DNA of 64,000 nt from Spirulina sp. (GTDB lineage Bacteria; Cyanobacteriota; Cyanobacteriia; Phormidesmidales; Phormidesmidaceae), in the NCBI GenBank assembly GCA_044070495.1, contig JBIPSI010000012.1, positions 32,001 to 96,000 of the forward strand, read 5' to 3'. Shown here piece by piece: positions 18,001-30,000 of the stretch. The position numbers are program-made. Position 1 is the stretch's first letter, and every line of letters starts with the position of its first letter.

Positions 18001-21000
18001 TAGGGCGCATGGTGGGGCGCAAACCCAAACGCATGAAGCACCGCATTCGGTAGAGCCATCTAGTCCCCCCTTCACCCTTCACGCTTCCTCCTTCACCCTT
18101 CACCCCCTCCAATGACAGATCCCCCCTTCACCTTCATCCCAATCCCTGTGCCACAAAGGATTGCTTTTCTAGGTCTGGGCCTAGTGGGTCTGCATATCGC
18201 TTTAATCGTCAGTGTCACGGGCAATGCCGATCAGGTGGTGTTGAGCCTGCTGTTTTGGGGAGCCATCGCCGACCAAGTCCGTCAGGGTGGCCCACTTCGG
18301 TGGGCGCGATCTCCCCTCGCTCGGATATTGGGCCTTGCACTGCTGGGTCTCCTTGGCCTGAAGTCCTTACCGATCCCCGCAACGGAATCGGCCTTTGTGA
18401 GGCTGTTTCCGTTGTTGGCCTTGGTGGGGTGGTCGCTGCTAGTGCGCCAGGGGAAAAACGGCCACGGCTGGAAGGTTTGGGCCTTAGTCGTGGCGCTCTC
18501 GGTGCCCCCCAGGGCGTTGCCGCTCGTTTTAGAAACGGTTTTGGATAGGCCGATCCGGGGGGCGACGGCGGCAGCAGCGGCCTTTGGCCTGCATTTTCTA
18601 GGATTCGATGTGGCGCAGCAGGGGACTTTCATCCAACTCCCTAGCGGCACCGTGGAGGTAGAGTTTGCCTGCACCGGGGCCGCTCTGCTGGGACTACTCC
18701 TACAGGTTTCGGTGCTGCTCGCCGTGGTGACAGCCTGGGCCAAGATCAGAGGGTTGATCCTGGGGTCGGTGGCCATTGCGGCCCTACTCAGCACCGTGCG
18801 CGTCGCCATTATGGCAGCGGTAGTGGGGAATGAAGCCCTCTTCCAGTTCTGGCATGGGTCTAGCGGGGGGCAACTGTTCACCCTCATCGCCCTAGCCATC
18901 CTCAGCTACAGAACCCTTGGGAAAGACGAACGATGGGCGACCCACAACGGTAGGTAGAACGCATTAGCCTGGCTGACTGACACAACCCCGAAAAGCATTG
19001 TTCTCTCGTAGGCTGGGTGGCGCGATAGCAGAACCCAACAAGCCCGAAATCTTCGGCGGGTATTGGGTTCCGCTTCGCTGCACCCAACCTACTGTAGAGA
19101 TGTGTCAGGCAATCAGCAAAAAGGCTATCGTCTAGATAGACCTACTCTTGCCCGGTTCAAAACTTTGCTATAAGTCTGTCACCAGCCAGAGTCTTCTGGC
19201 CAGACCCTTCAAAAAGGTCTCCCGTTGGGTGACGATATCGGCTCGACCCAACATCCCGGCTTGCAAGTGACAGGTGTGGTTAGCCGCTGGCAGCGCACTT
19301 GTTTGGGGTGCAATTTCGGCCCAATAGAATGGAAGGGTCTTGGCTGAACTAGGATCTGGGCTTTCCGTTTCCGTATCCGGAGCAATGGCCATTACCTGTC
19401 CATGCAGAACACCGTAGTCTGTGTAAGGGCAACTATCGATTCTCACGTTGACCTGCTGTCCAACCTGGACTCGACCCGCATCGGCCTGACTAACTTGGGC
19501 CTGGATAATCAACGCGACATTCGAGGGCGCAATTTGGGCAATGACATCTCCAGCTTGCAAGACCTGGTTTGGATTGCGCAGGTTAAGGGACTGAATGGTG
19601 CCGGTAACGGGAGCCTGCACGACCAACCGGGCTAATTCCAGGTTCACTTGCTGGAGGGTTTGCTGCTGGGATTGAATCTGCTGCTCTAGTTCGGCCTGCT
19701 GGCGGGTTAGTGCCTGCTGCGTCTGGCGCAGGTTAGCCAGGGTAGACTCCCCTCTGGCCTGGGTTTGCCGCATTTCCTCCTCAGCTTGCTCAATAGCGGC
19801 AGCACTAGGATTGATCCGGCCTCGGGTTCGATCCAATCGAGCCAGAGCCGTTTCTAAGGCCGCTTCTTTTTCTTTAAGCTGTAGGTCAGCCAGTGCCCCG
19901 GTATTGGCTAACTGGCGGTAGCGGTTGAGTTCTTCCTGGGCAAACTGCATGGCAGCATTCGCTTCTCGCAGGTCGGCGGCAGTGGTAGCTTGTTGTTCGC
20001 GGTAGTTGCGCTGGCGGAGGTCAAGCTGGGCCTGGGCGGCTGCAATCGCACCTTCAGCCGCCCTTGTCTCTGCCTGAATCTGGCTGTCGAGGACAACCCG
20101 CTCTTGCTGAATGTGCTGCTGCTGCCGCTGAAGCTGGTCGAGTTCGGCCTGGATCTGCTGCTGGCGCGATCGCACCTCGGCATCATCGAGCACCACCAGC
20201 GGATCTCCCTGCTGGACTTCATCGTTGGCTGTCACCAAAATTTGCCGTACCGGCCCGGTTGCAGTTGACTCCACAATCCGCAGGTCGCCTTCGGGACGGA
20301 CAACGGCGGGGGCTTTGACGGTAACGTTGTATTTGAGCAGGGCGGAGAGTGCGATCGCGCTGCCGAAGATGCCGACCAAGGCCAATCCTCCCAGCCTCGA
20401 CCAATGAGAAACACGCGGCAAAAACTCATCTGCATCAACTAAAGAGAGTCGTATTGATTGAGTCGTCTTCATCCGATTCTCTTCATTAAAATCGGTTTTT
20501 AGAAATCTTCGATTCAGCGTAAAAAGTGAAGTCAAGATTCTTGCAGACTGGTGCAGCAGAGCAAAGTATCAAGACAGCTATTCTAAGAGGTTTTACATGG
20601 AGTTCCTGTAGCTCTACAACGCCAAAGCCCAGCTCTTTTATAGCAGTCGTCAGAGGTTTTGTTGATTGCACAAGTCCAATTAGCGAAGTCTTTACCAGCG
20701 GCAATACGGACACGACTACGCCATTTTATGCGTGCAAATAGTCTTGCGGTTGACTTTCTGAAAGCACGACCAGTAGCCCCTGTCACTGGCCATAAACAAG
20801 TGTTGGTACACGCGGAGGGTTGTATACTTGATTCACCCTTTAGAAATATCGATTCACTTAAAGGTGCTGTGTTCAGGTCATCTCGCAGGATAGGACTAGA
20901 TTGTGCGGGTATTTTCATGGACGTCTTCCTCACGGCATTAAAATAAATTTGTTCAGCTCAGCGCACAAAGTAATAGAACCCTTATGAGAGGGTGCAGGAT

Positions 21001-27000: not shown

Positions 27001-30000
27001 TCTTAAGGCATTACTCCACCTTTGGCGATCGTTATCCTACCTGCAAAGGAAAACTGTCGCCGAAAAAGCTGAAGCTTGTCACTGACTATATCAACGACAA
27101 TTTAGCCAGGGAACTAAGTTTAAAAGAACTGGCTGTGATCACTCAATTGAGCCAGCATCATTTCTGCCGTACATTTAAGCGTTCTACTGGTCTAAGTCCC
27201 CATCAATATGTGATTCGACAACGGGTAGAACGCGCCAAACGATTGCTTAAGCAGGGTTCAATGCCCCTGGCAGACATTGCCATAAGCTGTGGCTTCAACC
27301 ATCAGAGTCATCTCCATCGCCATTTCAAGCGACTGACCGGGGTCACACCTCTAAACTGGCTAGATTCATGAGGACTTACCCCTGCGTCCAACAACATAGT
27401 GAAGAAGACTGTGGTGCAGCCTGTCTCGCAACGATTGCCAAGCACTACGGGCGCACCCTCTCGATTAGCCGCATTCGTGAAGCCGTAGGCACTGGGCAAC
27501 TCGGCACCACCCTGCTAGGGCTCCGACGCGGGGCCGAAACCCTGGGCTTCGATGCCCGTCCGGTCAAAGCCTCTCCAGAACTGATTGACCAACTGGAATC
27601 AGCCCCACTGCCTGCCATCATCCACTGGAAGGGCTACCACTGGGTGGTGCTATACGGTCAACGGGGGAAACACTATGTCATCGCCGATCCAGGGGTGGGG
27701 GTGCGCTACCTGTCTCGCCGGGAGTTGACCGAAGCCTGGGGTAACGGCGTCATGCTGCTGCTGGTGCCCGATGAGTCACGTTTCTCCGCCCAACCCAACG
27801 ATCAGGTGAAAGGCTTCAGTCGCTTTTTGGGGCGGGTGTGGGCCTATCGTGGAATTCTGTCAGAGGCGCTGCTCCTCAATCTCGTCATCGGCCTGCTGGC
27901 CCTGGCCCTGCCCCTGGTGATTCAGATTCTCACCGATGACGTGTTGGTACGGCGCGATGCCGATTTGCTCACCACAGTGGCCTTAGGAGCCCTGGCGCTG
28001 ATCGGCTTCAGTAGCCTGCTGCAACTGATTCAGGGCAACTTGATCGCCCATTTTGCCCAGCGGCTAGAGCTGGGGTTAGTGCTCGACTTTGGGCGGCAAC
28101 TGCTGCGTCTACCGATGCACTATTACGAATCGCACCGCAGCGGCGAGATCGTCAGTCGTCTGCGCGATATTCGTGAGGTGAATTTCCTGGTGTCGCAGGT
28201 GGTGATTAGCCTACCCAGCGAGTTTTTTATTGCCCTGGTGTCGCTGGGGTTAATGGTGATCTATAGCTGGCAGCTCACCCTGGCGGCGCTGGCGATCGCC
28301 GTGCTGATGACTCTGCCCAGCCTGCTGTTTTTCCCGACGTTGCAGCGTAAAACCCGCGATGTGCTGGTCACCGAAGCCGAAAACCAGGGGATTTTGGTGG
28401 AAAACTTTAAGGGGGCTATGACCCTGAAAACCAGCCATGGTGCTCCCCAAGCCTGGGATGAGTTGCAGGGTCGCTTTGGCCGGTTAGCCAACGTCACCTT
28501 TCGCACCGTGCAGATTGCCATTTGGAACAGCTTCACCTCTAGCTTGGTGTCAGGGATGGGGGCGATCGCCATTCTCTGGTTTGGCGGCTGGTTGGTGATT
28601 CAGCAGCAACTCACCATTGGTCAACTGCTGGCGTTTAACGCTCTTTATCGCTACGTCACCGGTTTTGTGGGCACCGTCATTCGCTTTATCGATGAATTCG
28701 CCCGCGCCAAAACCGCCATGCAGCGCCTAGGCGATATCATCGATGCCCCGCCCGAAACCCCAGCCGATGCGGCTAAACCCTGGGTTGAGATTGCCGACGA
28801 TGGCGATATTACCTGTATTGATGTCACCTTCCACCATGCGGGCAGAGTAGACTTGCTGAAAGACTTTTCCCTGACGATTCCTGGCGGCAAAGTCACCGCT
28901 ATTATCGGCAAGTCAGGCTGTGGCAAAAGTACTCTGGCCAAGCTCATCGCCGGGCTCTACACACCTCATTCTGGCAACATCCGCTTTGATAAATATAACC
29001 AGAGTGACTTGGCTCTCGACTGCCTTCGCCAGCAAATTATTCTTGTCCCCCAAGAGCCTCACTTTTGGAGCCGTTCCATCTTTGAAAACTTTCGCCTCAG
29101 TTACCCCTATGCGAATTTTGAAGACATTATCACGGCCTGCGAAGTCACCGGAGCGGACGAATTCATTGGTCAATTGCCAGATAAGTACCAAACGGTGCTC
29201 GGTGAGTTTGGCGTTAATCTGTCGGGAGGACAGAAACAACGGCTGGCGATTGCCCGCGCTCTAATCACCAATCCTCCGATTCTGATTCTGGATGAATCAA
29301 CGGGCGCTCTCGACCCAGCCAGCGAAGCAGAGGTTCTAGAACAGGTGATTGCTCACCGTTACGGTAAAACCACCCTGATGATTAGCCACCGTCCTCAGGT
29401 AGTTCAAAGAGCAGATTGGATTATTTCTCTGGCATCTGGCCAACTTTTGTCGATGGGTACCTTAGCTGATCTTTGTAAACAGCCTGGAATCCATACTGAA
29501 TTTATCAGCCGCTAGTCACGCTGTTCTGGTTTACTCTCCTAGTCGTTACAAGCTCCAATGCTCACCTAGCTGGTGGAACCATCAGTGATGGTGTGCAACG
29601 GTTTGTCGGTGAATCCTGCCAGACCTGTGTGATGGCATTTAGTAACTTGAACCAGGACAATGTTGATGCTGTCACAGGATGTGACTAAAAAGTGGATTAA
29701 TCTACGGCCTACTAGGCTCCTCTGGGGTGGGTAAAACAACGCTACTCAACAGCCTGATCGGCTACGACGGTTCAGTAGATCACAAACGTGCTCTTTTGCC
29801 ATGCTCCCGCCCTCACCCCCAACCCCTCTCCCACAAGGAGAGGGGAGCCGGAAAGTCTTGTGCAGAGCGTAACCCATGGGGGGCAAGGCTTTAGCGTTAC
29901 AGCGAGGCCTAACGCATCCTACCGGGATGACACGCCTGGTTGACTAACAAAACTGGCCAGAACCCAGATTGGTTCAAGGGTTAGGAGATCTGGGTTAAGG

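Follow-up and report, generated by a model that had tools for sequence, protein, structure and literature searches.

The cores of the nine double-glycine (GG) leader peptides encoded in the window, the stretch of 64,000 nucleotides of a Spirulina sp. contig that was analysed, are mosaics in which short stretches of conserved proteins are combined. They had been described as unrelated in the first-pass annotation, a claim that did not hold: the motif LLFANPFA, for instance, is the C-terminus of the ATP synthase c-subunit. The copied segments are kept by selection on their amino acid sequence. The best explanation, given a probability of about 0.6 jointly with the reading of the mosaic cores as cargo and as mimics, is that two peptide systems with a single transcription direction are combined in the locus. 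No description of such a make-up from core-protein fragments was found for bacteriocin-like peptides.

Organization of the locus

The array of nine same-strand ORFs spans positions 23408–26147 of the minus strand, between a subtilase gene and an AraC gene; the HlyD gene is at the far end of the locus, with the AraC and C39-ABC exporter genes on the opposite side of the array. The array shares its strand with the protease, p0, p0b and HlyD genes, and the gaps between them are short. The features are as follows:

19168–20535, minus strand: HlyD-family membrane-fusion protein, exporter partner (Pfam HlyD_3, 1.9e-17)
20583–20918, minus strand: p0b, candidate protease substrate, 111 aa, starting with MKIPAQS and with a Cys-containing tail; no Pfam family
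21088–21363, minus strand: p0, candidate protease substrate, 91 aa, starting with MRIPMQS
21432–23363, minus strand: PatA-type subtilase (Peptidase_S8, PatG_D and PatG_C; NCBIfam PatA/PatG protease, 736 bits)
23408–23614, minus strand: p1, GG-leader peptide, core IPWAHEKNSLA resembling PsaB IVWAHERTPLA (7/11 identical)
23646–23924 (longest ORF to 23951), minus strand: p2, GG-leader peptide, three-piece mosaic core
24021–24284, minus strand: p3, GG-leader peptide, three-piece core with PsaA-like centre
24340–24540, minus strand: p4, GG-leader peptide, Gly-rich hydrophobic core
24576–24854, minus strand: p5, GG-leader peptide, 60-aa core
24862–25047, minus strand: p6, GG-leader peptide, core opening with the c-subunit C-terminus
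25119–25274, minus strand: p7, GG-leader peptide, core resembling EF-Tu residues 7–16 (7/10)
25367–25564, minus strand: p8, GG-leader peptide, c-subunit and PsaB core
25968–26147, minus strand: p9, GG-leader peptide, two-Cys core, kept in loci L003 and L067
26472–27371, plus strand: AraC-family regulator (Pfam HTH_18, HTH_AraC), divergent from the array
27368–29515, plus strand: C39-peptidase ABC exporter, short type (Peptidase_C39, ABC_membrane and ABC_tran)

Peptides p1 to p9 are 51–92 aa long and were all aligned on a common leader ending in GG (AGG in p7). ORF translation and this alignment bore out the positions, strand and lengths of the first-pass annotation; Pfam, NCBIfam and solved relatives agreed with it on the flanking PatA/G-type subtilase, AraC regulator, C39-ABC exporter and HlyD protein, and the lowered GC of the region was confirmed (0.45–0.48 over 21–27 kb against about 0.57–0.62 in the surroundings). 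No immunity gene was recognised at the locus, which counts against the main reading.

A leader pattern, deliberately loose and post hoc, gave 18 matches in the six-frame translation of the 5.3-Mb genome, nine of which were the array. A leader profile matched nine times in the genome, always within the array, and elsewhere gave only weak matches, in six of 400 other genomes. All nine peptides belong to the double-glycine substrates that are exported by a C39-ABC/HlyD pair. The p8 type was present in only three clusters among 5.8 billion proteins; the rarity of the family counts against the main reading.

The HlyD protein matched NCBIfam type_I_hlyD at 1.2e-53, under the cut-off of the model, and showed 83% nucleotide identity to its counterpart in L003, where the locus order is the same. 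The AraC regulator was 81% identical to the L003 ortholog and 43–58% identical to AraC proteins beside related arrays and beside an orphan protease. Relatives of the exporter at E ≤ 1e-200 were found in 83 of 401 sampled genomes of the phylum (G000 included), and genomes G174, G291 and G388 carry related mosaic GG arrays together with this AraC, exporter and HlyD set.

The short-type C39-ABC and HlyD pair is as in the cyanobacterial GG "bacteriocin" clusters of group III (Wang et al. 2011, PMC3140520), which share with this locus tandem small GG precursors (many of them unannotated), the C39, ABC_membrane and ABC_tran domains and hypervariable cores. Unlike the clusters outlined there, the locus has AraC as a fixed partner, mosaic cores and an embedded PatA-type protease module. 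The leaders of some array peptides also align weakly with the CTB family bacteriocin (NCBIfam NF038167; 13.9 bits for p5, 16–19 bits for the L069 peptides), but no window peptide reaches the 32-bit cut-off and no core is related to that family. Its true members include the GG peptides beside Nostocales-type exporter relatives, at 40–46 bits.

Mosaic cores and selection on the copied segments

At least six of the nine window cores contain one to three short segments (6–16 aa) identical or near-identical to invariant stretches of conserved, mostly abundant parent proteins identified by Pfam. Represented are the FX loops of PsaA/PsaB, the loop and C-terminus of the ATP synthase c-subunit, the N-terminus of phycocyanin-beta, an OprB porin and the DUF4157 metalloprotease motif; the EF-Tu N-terminus is a possible further parent, not significant alone.

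The p2 core joins the phycocyanin-beta N-terminus (10/13), the OprB-porin segment RLREEFQAELSPLR (11/14) and the ATP synthase c loop IRGTLL (6/6); its best match was reached by 0/200 shuffles and its core dN/dS was 0.20. In p3, a c-subunit loop-like EIRGTILL is followed by the PsaA FX loop (14/16, both Cys replaced) and by a DUF4157-type HExxH tail; the tail had been noticed in the first-pass annotation. This core matched Pfam PsaA_PsaB (1.2e-5, 24.2 bits, above the cut-off), eCIS_core (0.0031) and the genome ORFs (E 2.7e-7; 0/200 shuffles). The p6 core starts with LLFANPF (c-subunit C-terminus, 7/7), and its last residues resemble the C-terminus of an M50 peptidase (10/12); 1/200 shuffles reached the best score of this core. 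In p8, VLLFANPF (c-subunit C-terminus, 8/8) is combined with the PsaB FX loop (KKDFGFS, SFPCDGPGR; 0/200 shuffles for the core). The shared motifs reported earlier, LLFANPFA and F.[SC]DGPGR, are real. Orthologs of p8 in L003 and in a metagenome carry 18/18 PsaB residues, both Cys included. The absence of both FX cysteines from p3 and the truncation of p8 relative to its L003 ortholog could be decay and count against the main reading.

The resemblance of p1 to PsaB was not significant alone (169/200 shuffles reached the best score); its L067 homologue matched two PsaB stretches (E 0.008 and 0.015). For p7 the best genome match was EF-Tu, again not significant alone (37/200 shuffles), and a diverged L003 peptide at another array position matched EF-Tu residues 4–16 at 9/13 (7/200 shuffles). 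A parent protein was not detected for p4 (150/200 shuffles reached the score; ortholog present in L003, core dN/dS 0.15), for p5 in the genome comparison (counterpart absent from L003) or for p9 (core dN/dS 0.11), where the PDB comparison gave only GlyQ at a non-significant E of 1.7. These three parentless cores of nine, together with p1 and p7, count against the main reading.

The motifs LLFANPF, IRGT[LI]L, KPH.N[IV]G and MFDA[FY]TKVV each occurred once in a six-frame ORF set of 4.0 million residues, always in the parent. Beside close exporters (≥69% identity: window, L003, L057, L067 and L069, a grouping chosen after the data had been seen), 15 of 34 cores matched conserved proteins at E ≤ 0.01, compared with 11 of 1700 shuffles; beside more distant exporters one of 51 did (1/32 and 0/19). 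Independently of this, NCBIfam profiles aligned related peptides with ATP synthase C (positions 68–81 of 81), psaA/psaB, the por_somb porin and P-II (positions 2–21). Pieces from parent N-termini (P-II residues 3–16, CpcB 1–13 and EF-Tu 4–16) are located at the core start, and the c-subunit C-terminus is the peptide end in L067, L068, L069 and the L005 ORF.

Codons at identical residues mostly differ (the same in 1/8 for VLLFANPF and in 2/11 for the porin piece), which rules out a recent DNA copy and, with a core dN/dS of 0.11–0.37 in six ortholog pairs, indicates that the similarity is maintained through the protein sequence. Whole-peptide dN/dS was 0.2–0.56 and that of neighbouring enzymes 0.07–0.17, overlapped by the core range at its low end. 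Peptides P0001 and P0002 have identical cores and leaders differing at nine positions, and a 14-sequence family has GKIRGTLLF as a conserved block at the C-terminus.

It is possible, if rather unlikely, that the fragments were raw material only: a recombination-prone leader array would have gained new cores by capturing bits of the coding sequence, or of the mRNA ends, of highly expressed genes. The peptides would then be ordinary membrane-active bacteriocins or, like EbfG1-4, proteins of the biofilm matrix, and their likeness to the parents would have no role. That GG-motif proteins can have a non-antibiotic role is known from EbfG1-4/PteB of Synechococcus elongatus, a studied example of group III-type clusters (PMC4997328). 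Several of the copied pieces (c-subunit, PsaB, pilin) are ends of hydrophobic helices, fitting membrane-active peptides; three pieces correspond to the very 5' end of the parent gene and one to the 3' end; of 39 nucleotides in the p2 piece, 32 are shared with the host cpcB-like gene; the array content has changed between window and L003, and L068 carries a frameshifted copy. Against raw material alone, copied positions are better kept than the rest of the cores between window and L003 (84/92 against 49/72 identical), the blocks are conserved, and amino acid identity persists despite codon divergence. Moreover, at least four cyanobacterial families share the blocks, and fidelity to terminus positions would be hard to obtain without selection.

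The PatA-type protease and its companion ORFs

The D/H/S motifs of the subtilase, read from the translation, are ILDG, HGTHVA and GTSYAT, and among solved structures it is closest to the N-terminal cyanobactin proteases 4h6w and 4h6v (the PagA and PatA protease domains). Cyanobactin pathways (PatA/PatG/PatD/PatE; 4uvq for the PatG DUF) are alike in the PagA/PatA matches (E 5e-94 and 4e-91), in a protease with the cyanobactin DUF and in adjoining small precursor genes. Unlike in those pathways, no YcaO heterocyclase was found in the genome (97% complete), the protease gene is the only PatA/G-like gene, with no second one in the genome as a possible macrocyclase, and no prenyltransferase was seen near the protease in the window (ORF list; flanks scanned in part). 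The earlier statements that YcaO is missing and that this is not a canonical cyanobactin pathway are upheld.

The companions differ from cyanobactin precursors in their size (62–111 aa), Cys-containing tails and lack of recognisable PatA/PatG recognition sequences. Peptide p0 has a doubled SIEEIEE stretch and a two-Cys tail; no Pfam or NCBIfam family was found for it, and it has only a few "hypothetical" relatives among 5.8 billion proteins. We take the p0/p0b-type N-terminus to resemble loosely the conserved beginning of PatE-like leaders. In a pattern scan, small ORFs with an M[KRI][LI]P... start, one or two per locus, were directly downstream of the protease in 10/10 loci with this protease type (window and L001–L009), and p0 and p0b, not the GG peptides, are likely the best-supported protease substrates.

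The first-pass annotation had coupled the protease to bacteriocin-type export. The GG peptides do suit C39-ABC/HlyD export; the protease has candidate substrates of its own, and the coupling is not obligatory, since no PatA-like protease was found in the genomes G174, G291 and G388, which have related GG arrays. It is doubtful that the nine GG peptides are also processed by the protease, as a second maturation enzyme in one pathway with their export. The common strand and short gaps, kept in order in L003, suit such a pathway, as does the presence of one AraC family beside both array-only and protease loci (L001b and L067 86% identical, window and L005 58%). This AraC family is found beside the protease in four of seven loci of the 65–100% identity clade (window, L003, L001 and L005), with a GG-leader remnant (L001) or a 181-aa mosaic ORF without GG leader (L005) between the two genes; in G177 a second C39-ABC gene has another PatA-like fragment 1.2 kb away. 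Against a single pathway, L002, L004 and L006–L009 have the protease and downstream ORFs without AraC, exporter or GG peptides within the stretch covered, and the canonical PatA/PatG recognition sequence was not seen in the cores on inspection for known motifs. A looser, AraC-linked connection between protease and array is possible.

Proposed model of the locus

A reading of the small ORFs as non-coding debris or decayed gene copies, with matches that are relics of broken psaA, psaB or atpH pseudogenes, is very improbable: the low-GC island, the five of nine ORFs uncalled by the gene caller, the short p8 and the L003 peptide q4 without an obvious start codon would suit it, but all nine ORFs retain start codon, leader, GG and open core, dN/dS is low, the pieces, of 6–18 aa, lie precisely in frame behind the leader, unlike long gene remnants, and the design recurs in independent assemblies.

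As a composite, the locus would comprise a double-glycine secretion system (AraC, short-type C39-ABC exporter, HlyD and nine precursor genes), in which the C39 domain, by family knowledge, would cut the precursors after GG and export the core, and a minimal cyanobactin-like module of the PatA-type protease and two downstream precursors (M[KR]IPxQS start, Cys-containing tails). Conserved synteny suggests that the protease most likely trims p0 and p0b. The mosaic fragments were probably captured originally from coding sequence.

RiPP-type precursors can reuse pieces of housekeeping proteins, as in the NHLP and Nif11 precursor families, whose leaders are borrowed from enzymes, and darobactin, a RiPP imitating a recognition signal at BamA, is a secreted peptide acting by protein-segment mimicry. 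Unlike a borrowed leader or structural mimicry, the exported core itself is here stitched from near-exact sequence copies of segments of several unrelated proteins. No single target explains the copied segments, because those of the parents sit in different cell compartments, which counts against the main reading. Molecular mimicry by the exported peptides is proposed with low confidence, on sequence grounds: the cores may target other cyanobacteria or the envelope of the producer itself, and may compete for the partners of the copied segments or offer copied free N- or C-termini to terminus-reading machines.

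The double-glycine peptide cluster

The cluster comprises the following features.

19168-20535, minus strand: HlyD-type membrane-fusion protein (HlyD_3 at 1.9e-17), last gene of the minus-strand series
20583-20918, minus strand: p0b, small ORF downstream of the protease
21088-21363, minus strand: p0, small ORF downstream of the protease
21432-23363, minus strand: 643-aa PatA-type subtilase, downstream of the array (Pfam Peptidase_S8, PatG_D and PatG_C)
23408-26147, minus strand: array of nine ORFs of 51-92 aa (p1 to p9) with double-glycine (GG) leaders, from ORF reading of the window
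26472-27371, plus strand: AraC regulator, divergent from the array
27368-29515, plus strand: C39-ABC exporter (Peptidase_C39 3.9e-36, ABC_membrane 1.2e-37, ABC_tran 9.9e-33)

The N-terminal 31-40 residues of p1-p9 aligned on a common leader of roughly L..L[TSND]..QS..I.GG, a conserved leader with a GG end being present in 9/9 ORFs. A loose form of the pattern, fitted post hoc, had 18 matches in the genome (5.3 Mb, translated in six frames), nine of them being the array ORFs. The nine matches of a leader profile in the genome were all located in the array, and outside this genome only weak matches were obtained, in 6 of 400 other sampled phylum genomes. The leader alignment and both searches confirmed the nine leader-sharing ORFs reported in the first-pass annotation, and its coordinates for the five uncalled ones were exact. 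The GC content, also reported as low, was 0.45-0.48 over the cluster against about 0.57-0.62 in the surroundings. Counts from a promoter and terminator scan of 19000-27000 were no higher than in shuffles. Of the sequencing runs listed for 21000-26400, none was RNA; those found were DNA metagenomes sharing part of it.

The exporter translation shows the stretches DCGAACL and HW, which we take to be the expected catalytic Cys and His of the C39 peptidase. One C39 gene was found elsewhere in the genome, and HlyD was also present at the related loci L003, L057, L067, L068 and L069. With its C39-ABC exporter, HlyD protein and GG precursors, the locus has the make-up of a double-glycine peptide export cluster, for which cleavage after GG and secretion of the core are predicted. 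In Wang et al. 2011 (PMC3140520), cyanobacterial GG clusters are sorted by domain content and the short-type C39-ABC transporter occurs in groups III, IV and V; since neither a LanM gene nor an extra ABC transporter is present, the window was assigned to group III. The window differs from the S8-containing group VI, which is described there with a long-type transporter and SurA. The best window peptide on the CTB family bacteriocin model NF038167 was p5, with 13.9 bits, under the 32-bit cut-off.

Just past HlyD, positions 14552-18957 contain an exosortase-type locus with the following features.

18112-18957: cyanoexosortase-like protein (CrtA model 98 bits, below cut-off)
17163-18053: HpsJ-like cyanoexosortase-A-associated protein (250 bits)
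15481-16329: PFE-CTERM-tailed protein, one of two paralogues in this locus (23.7 bits, cut-off 24)

Glycosyltransferases are located beyond the opposite side, from 30144 onward, and the low-GC peptide cluster thus lies inside an exopolysaccharide/sorting neighbourhood. Many short multi-frame ORFs with GSAHPT or PSPFTLH repeats, at 14500-16400 and elsewhere, suggest a dispersed short repeat in the genome.

Mosaic composition of the peptide cores

The cores, i.e. the predicted mature parts after GG, were searched against the organism's own genome, and the parent proteins, those conserved proteins whose short segments the cores resemble, were confirmed by Pfam. Unexpectedly, Pfam placed p3 and p8 on PsaA_PsaB. 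The p3 core carries the PsaA FX loop (14/16 residues) and ends with a DUF4157-type HExxH piece; the PsaB FX loop is present in p8. Immediately after GG, the p2 core matches residues 1-13 of a phycocyanin-beta-type protein at 10 positions, followed by RLREEFQAELSPLR in the middle (11/14 to an OprB porin) and by IRGTLL at the end (6/6 to the ATP synthase c-subunit loop). The p6 and p8 cores open with (V)LLFANPF, the sequence at the c-subunit C-terminus, which explains the LLFANPFA motif noted in the first pass. Likeness to EF-Tu residues 7-16 in p7 and to a PsaB stretch in p1 was not significant alone. Each short motif occurred once (or once per paralogue) in 4.0 million six-frame ORF residues, always in the parent protein.

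In a control with 200 shuffles per core, p2, p3 and p8 were reached by none, p6 by 1 and p7 by 37; p1, p4, p5 and p9 were not significant alone. No parent proteins of p4, p5 and p9 (3/9 cores) were found in the genome ORF search, and the p9 core matched only GlyQ in the PDB (E 1.7), the host GlyQ having little in common with it. The cores, previously considered unrelated, are instead mosaics of conserved-protein segments, according to the genome search, Pfam and the shuffles. At the end of the p3 leader (24171-24179), the AGG site plus EIRGTILL aligns with AEGKIRGTLLL of the c-subunit (8/11); the copied segment may therefore extend into the leader, although this could be chance. A short-ORF scan without leader filter was excluded from the counts because it yielded mainly alternate-frame shadows of conserved genes.

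Exporter relatives at E<=1e-200 were present in 83 of 401 sampled phylum genomes, G000 included. Forty such loci were taken in two batches, their GG peptides were extracted with one regular expression, and the cores were compared with the ORF set of the window's genome. The 69% identity threshold for grouping was set after the data were seen, and L068, of the 69% group, is outside the counts because it gave no peptide under the regular expression.

Cores of exporter-related loci matching the ORF set of the window's genome at E<=0.01
Exporter identity 69% or more (window, L003, L057, L067, L069): cores 15/34; shuffles 11/1700
Exporter identity 60-66%: cores 1/32; shuffles 11/1600
Second, more distant exporter batch: cores 0/19; shuffles 5/950

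At L003, the p8 ortholog ends with 18/18 PsaB residues, both FX cysteines included, and a diverged EF-Tu-like peptide occupies a different array position. L057 and L069 have EAEGKIRGTLL as peptide end and a single core holding porin and pilin pieces; L069 also carries the copied piece FPCDGPGRGGTCDIS.WD. L067 has a peptide with 14/14 c-subunit C-terminal residues at its end, and L068 a frameshifted porin/pilin copy and a peptide ending in ALLFANSFS. At the more distant L073, one core consists of the P-II N-terminus (13/14) followed by a thioredoxin loop, with both parents confirmed. In an independent comparison, NCBIfam profiles matched related peptides to positions 68-81 (of 81) or 43-55 of ATP synthase C, to psaA/psaB, to the por_somb porin and to positions 2-21 of P-II. 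A family of 14 sequences (Microcoleus and a Komarekiella record) has a variable middle between two conserved blocks, one being the C-terminal GKIRGTLLF; no parent was found for the conserved EGCLAWSIGFSDVVRP block of the Microcoleus-type family. The copied N-terminal pieces (CpcB 1-13, EF-Tu 4-16, P-II 3-16) form the very start of the predicted mature peptide. In L067, L068, L069 and an L005 ORF, the peptide ends with the c-subunit C-terminus; p6 and p8 carry this piece at the start of the core instead.

Additional genes were observed at some of these loci. L003 has a 463-aa beta-lactamase-fold gene (12519-13910; Pfam Beta-lactamase 2.3e-20) between the protease precursors and HlyD, and L069, in G177, a 323-aa RTX-repeat protein (13199-14170; HemolysinCabind 1.4e-49) mid-array among the GG peptides. 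In the Microcoleus-type loci, a conserved ORF of about 190-200 aa without Pfam family lies directly before HlyD (L057 11256-11828, L068 4605-5204) and is a possible accessory or immunity gene for the GG system. Neither the beta-lactamase-fold gene nor the Microcoleus-type ORF has a counterpart in the window.

Recent DNA copying from host genes was rejected as a general explanation. Codons at identical residues were mostly unlike those of the host gene (alike in 1/8 for VLLFANPF, 2/11 for the porin piece and 3/9 for the FX piece), and therefore the likeness is no fresh DNA copy; blastn-short returned two short borderline matches only, cpcB-like (30/34 nt) and psaA (24/26 nt). Core dN/dS was 0.11-0.37 in six ortholog pairs between the window and L003, usually below the leader values, its low end overlapping the 0.07-0.17 of neighbouring enzymes. 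In the same comparison, 84/92 copied positions and 49/72 other core positions were identical (Fisher p 2e-4, for one lineage pair and sites that are not independent). A metagenome relative of p8 has an identical core and a leader different at 9 positions. These data point to selection working at the level of protein sequence.

The PatA-type protease and its relation to the array

The subtilase scored 736 bits on the NCBIfam PatA/PatG model TIGR03895 (cut-off 421), and its nearest solved structures are the N-terminal cyanobactin proteases 4h6w (4.9e-94) and 4h6v (4e-91) and the PatG DUF 4uvq (5e-56). The sole PatA/G-like match in the genome was the subtilase gene itself, with no PatG-type second protease/macrocyclase, and the YcaO heterocyclase PF02624 had 0 matches in the 97%-complete genome, positive controls responding. 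Thus, the window shares with the cyanobactin pathway the PatA-type protease with the cyanobactin DUF but lacks the PatG-type macrocyclase and YcaO, and the earlier exclusion of a canonical cyanobactin pathway was upheld. According to a cyanobactin review (PMC4663559), YcaO is absent from some known cyanobactin types too; no lone-protease cluster was found in the passages of it that were examined.

Ten loci with protease relatives were compared (the window and L001-L009), omitting L010 (S8 domain match only, 29% identity). The closest relative, from the Elainellales MAG locus L003 (90% protein identity), has the same gene order as the window: exporter, AraC, GG array, protease and HlyD. Relatives at 65-70% identity were found in Coleofasciculus, Calothrix, Caldora, Leptolyngbya and a Xenococcaceae MAG, and three from Nostocales at 44-47%; a scan of neighbouring ORFs revealed no heterocyclase. 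In 10/10 loci, the protease gene is followed directly, on its downstream side, by one or two small ORFs. They start with M[KRI][LI]P.[QL][SV], except the second copy of L003 (MKLPDQA), and most of them have a mid-leader [YFL]P motif and Cys-rich or Cys-containing tails.

In the window, p0 and p0b, which were missing from the first-pass annotation, have the conserved start and the mid-leader motif common to the ORFs beside all related proteases, and on the basis of this conserved synteny they are the best candidate substrates of the PatA-type protease. No canonical cyanobactin recognition sequences and no family-model matches were observed in them, and a large protein collection held a handful of 'hypothetical' relatives only. 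No housekeeping-protein mimicry was detected in 14 scored p0-type ORFs at E<0.005 (best E 0.006, a gapped low-complexity match). The lone PatA-type protease and the M[KR][LI]PxQS precursors constitute a two-part module, previously unannotated, scattered across cyanobacterial orders, and a candidate new branch of cyanobactin-like peptides that would need no heterocyclase or macrocyclase.

The proposed coupling of this protease to bacteriocin-type export was supported in part. In genomes G174, G291 and G388, mosaic GG peptides occur together with AraC, exporter and HlyD, and a search for PatA-like genes there gave none; the protease is therefore not required by the GG system, p0 and p0b being its likelier substrates. 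Signs of a link remain: the AraC genes of protease and array loci belong to one family (window AraC 58% identical to that beside the L005 protease; L001 AraC 86% identical to that beside the L067 array), and L001 keeps a leader remnant upstream of its protease. At the remnant's position, L005 has a 181-aa ORF without GG leader containing an EGCLAWS block, the c-subunit loop, a porin piece and the c-subunit C-terminus. From the protease-free arrays and these signs, the window is therefore read as two modules, often neighbours and perhaps co-regulated, and not as one obligatory pathway.

At L087 (G177:C122, 1-4197), a second PatA-like protease fragment (56% identity), ended by the contig edge, and another C39-ABC exporter (58% identity) are 1.2 kb apart; the ORF between them resembles an IS200-type transposase by eye.

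Proposed role of the peptides

Two features of the window are new and surprising: the cores are built as mosaics, and the lone PatA-type protease has a precursor family that lacks annotation. Searches of open-access articles yielded no description of GG-peptide cores copied from or mimicking housekeeping proteins. Known systems include microcins that target ATP synthase, darobactin with its mimicry at BamA, and the leaders of the NHLP and Nif11 families. Wang et al. 2011 (PMC3140520) report little conservation among GG-cluster cores. Parnasa et al. 2016 (PMC4997328) show a role in enabling biofilm formation for the GG proteins EbfG1-4 together with the transporter PteB, and state that mature EbfG1-4 lack homology to proteins of other cyanobacteria.

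As a tentative proposal, to which we give a probability of about 0.3, the lineage with AraC, C39-ABC and HlyD would secrete 'mimic peptides', each put together from near-exact copies of essential-protein segments, which would affect other cyanobacteria or serve as signals to kin by taking the place of those segments. Their sources would be the least mutable segments and the free termini of essential proteins, with PSI FX loops, ATP synthase c-subunit, EF-Tu, phycocyanin, P-II, thioredoxin, pilin and porin as parents. The mode of action that we infer could be that of dominant-negative competitors in complex assembly, of false 'unassembled or damaged protein' signals for terminus-recognising envelope machines, or of alarm signals imitating lysed-cell debris. 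A single target is unlikely, because the parents of the copied segments belong to different compartments. If the proposal is true, the peptides would act by sequence copying of the target's conserved proteome and simple resistance mutations would be costly.

Among the secreted products of cyanobacteria that are still unexplored, double-glycine peptides are some of the commonest, and so far their cores have been treated as unrelated and hypervariable. In a defined sub-lineage, these cores are composed of recognisable pieces, maintained by selection, of photosystem I, ATP synthase, EF-Tu, phycocyanin, porin and pilin, with P-II and thioredoxin pieces at one more distant exporter locus. The copied segments give testable hypotheses for the possible binding partner of each peptide, suggest the capture of coding fragments, perhaps from gene ends, as a birth route of new secreted peptides, and provide a simple signature by which further ones could be found computationally.
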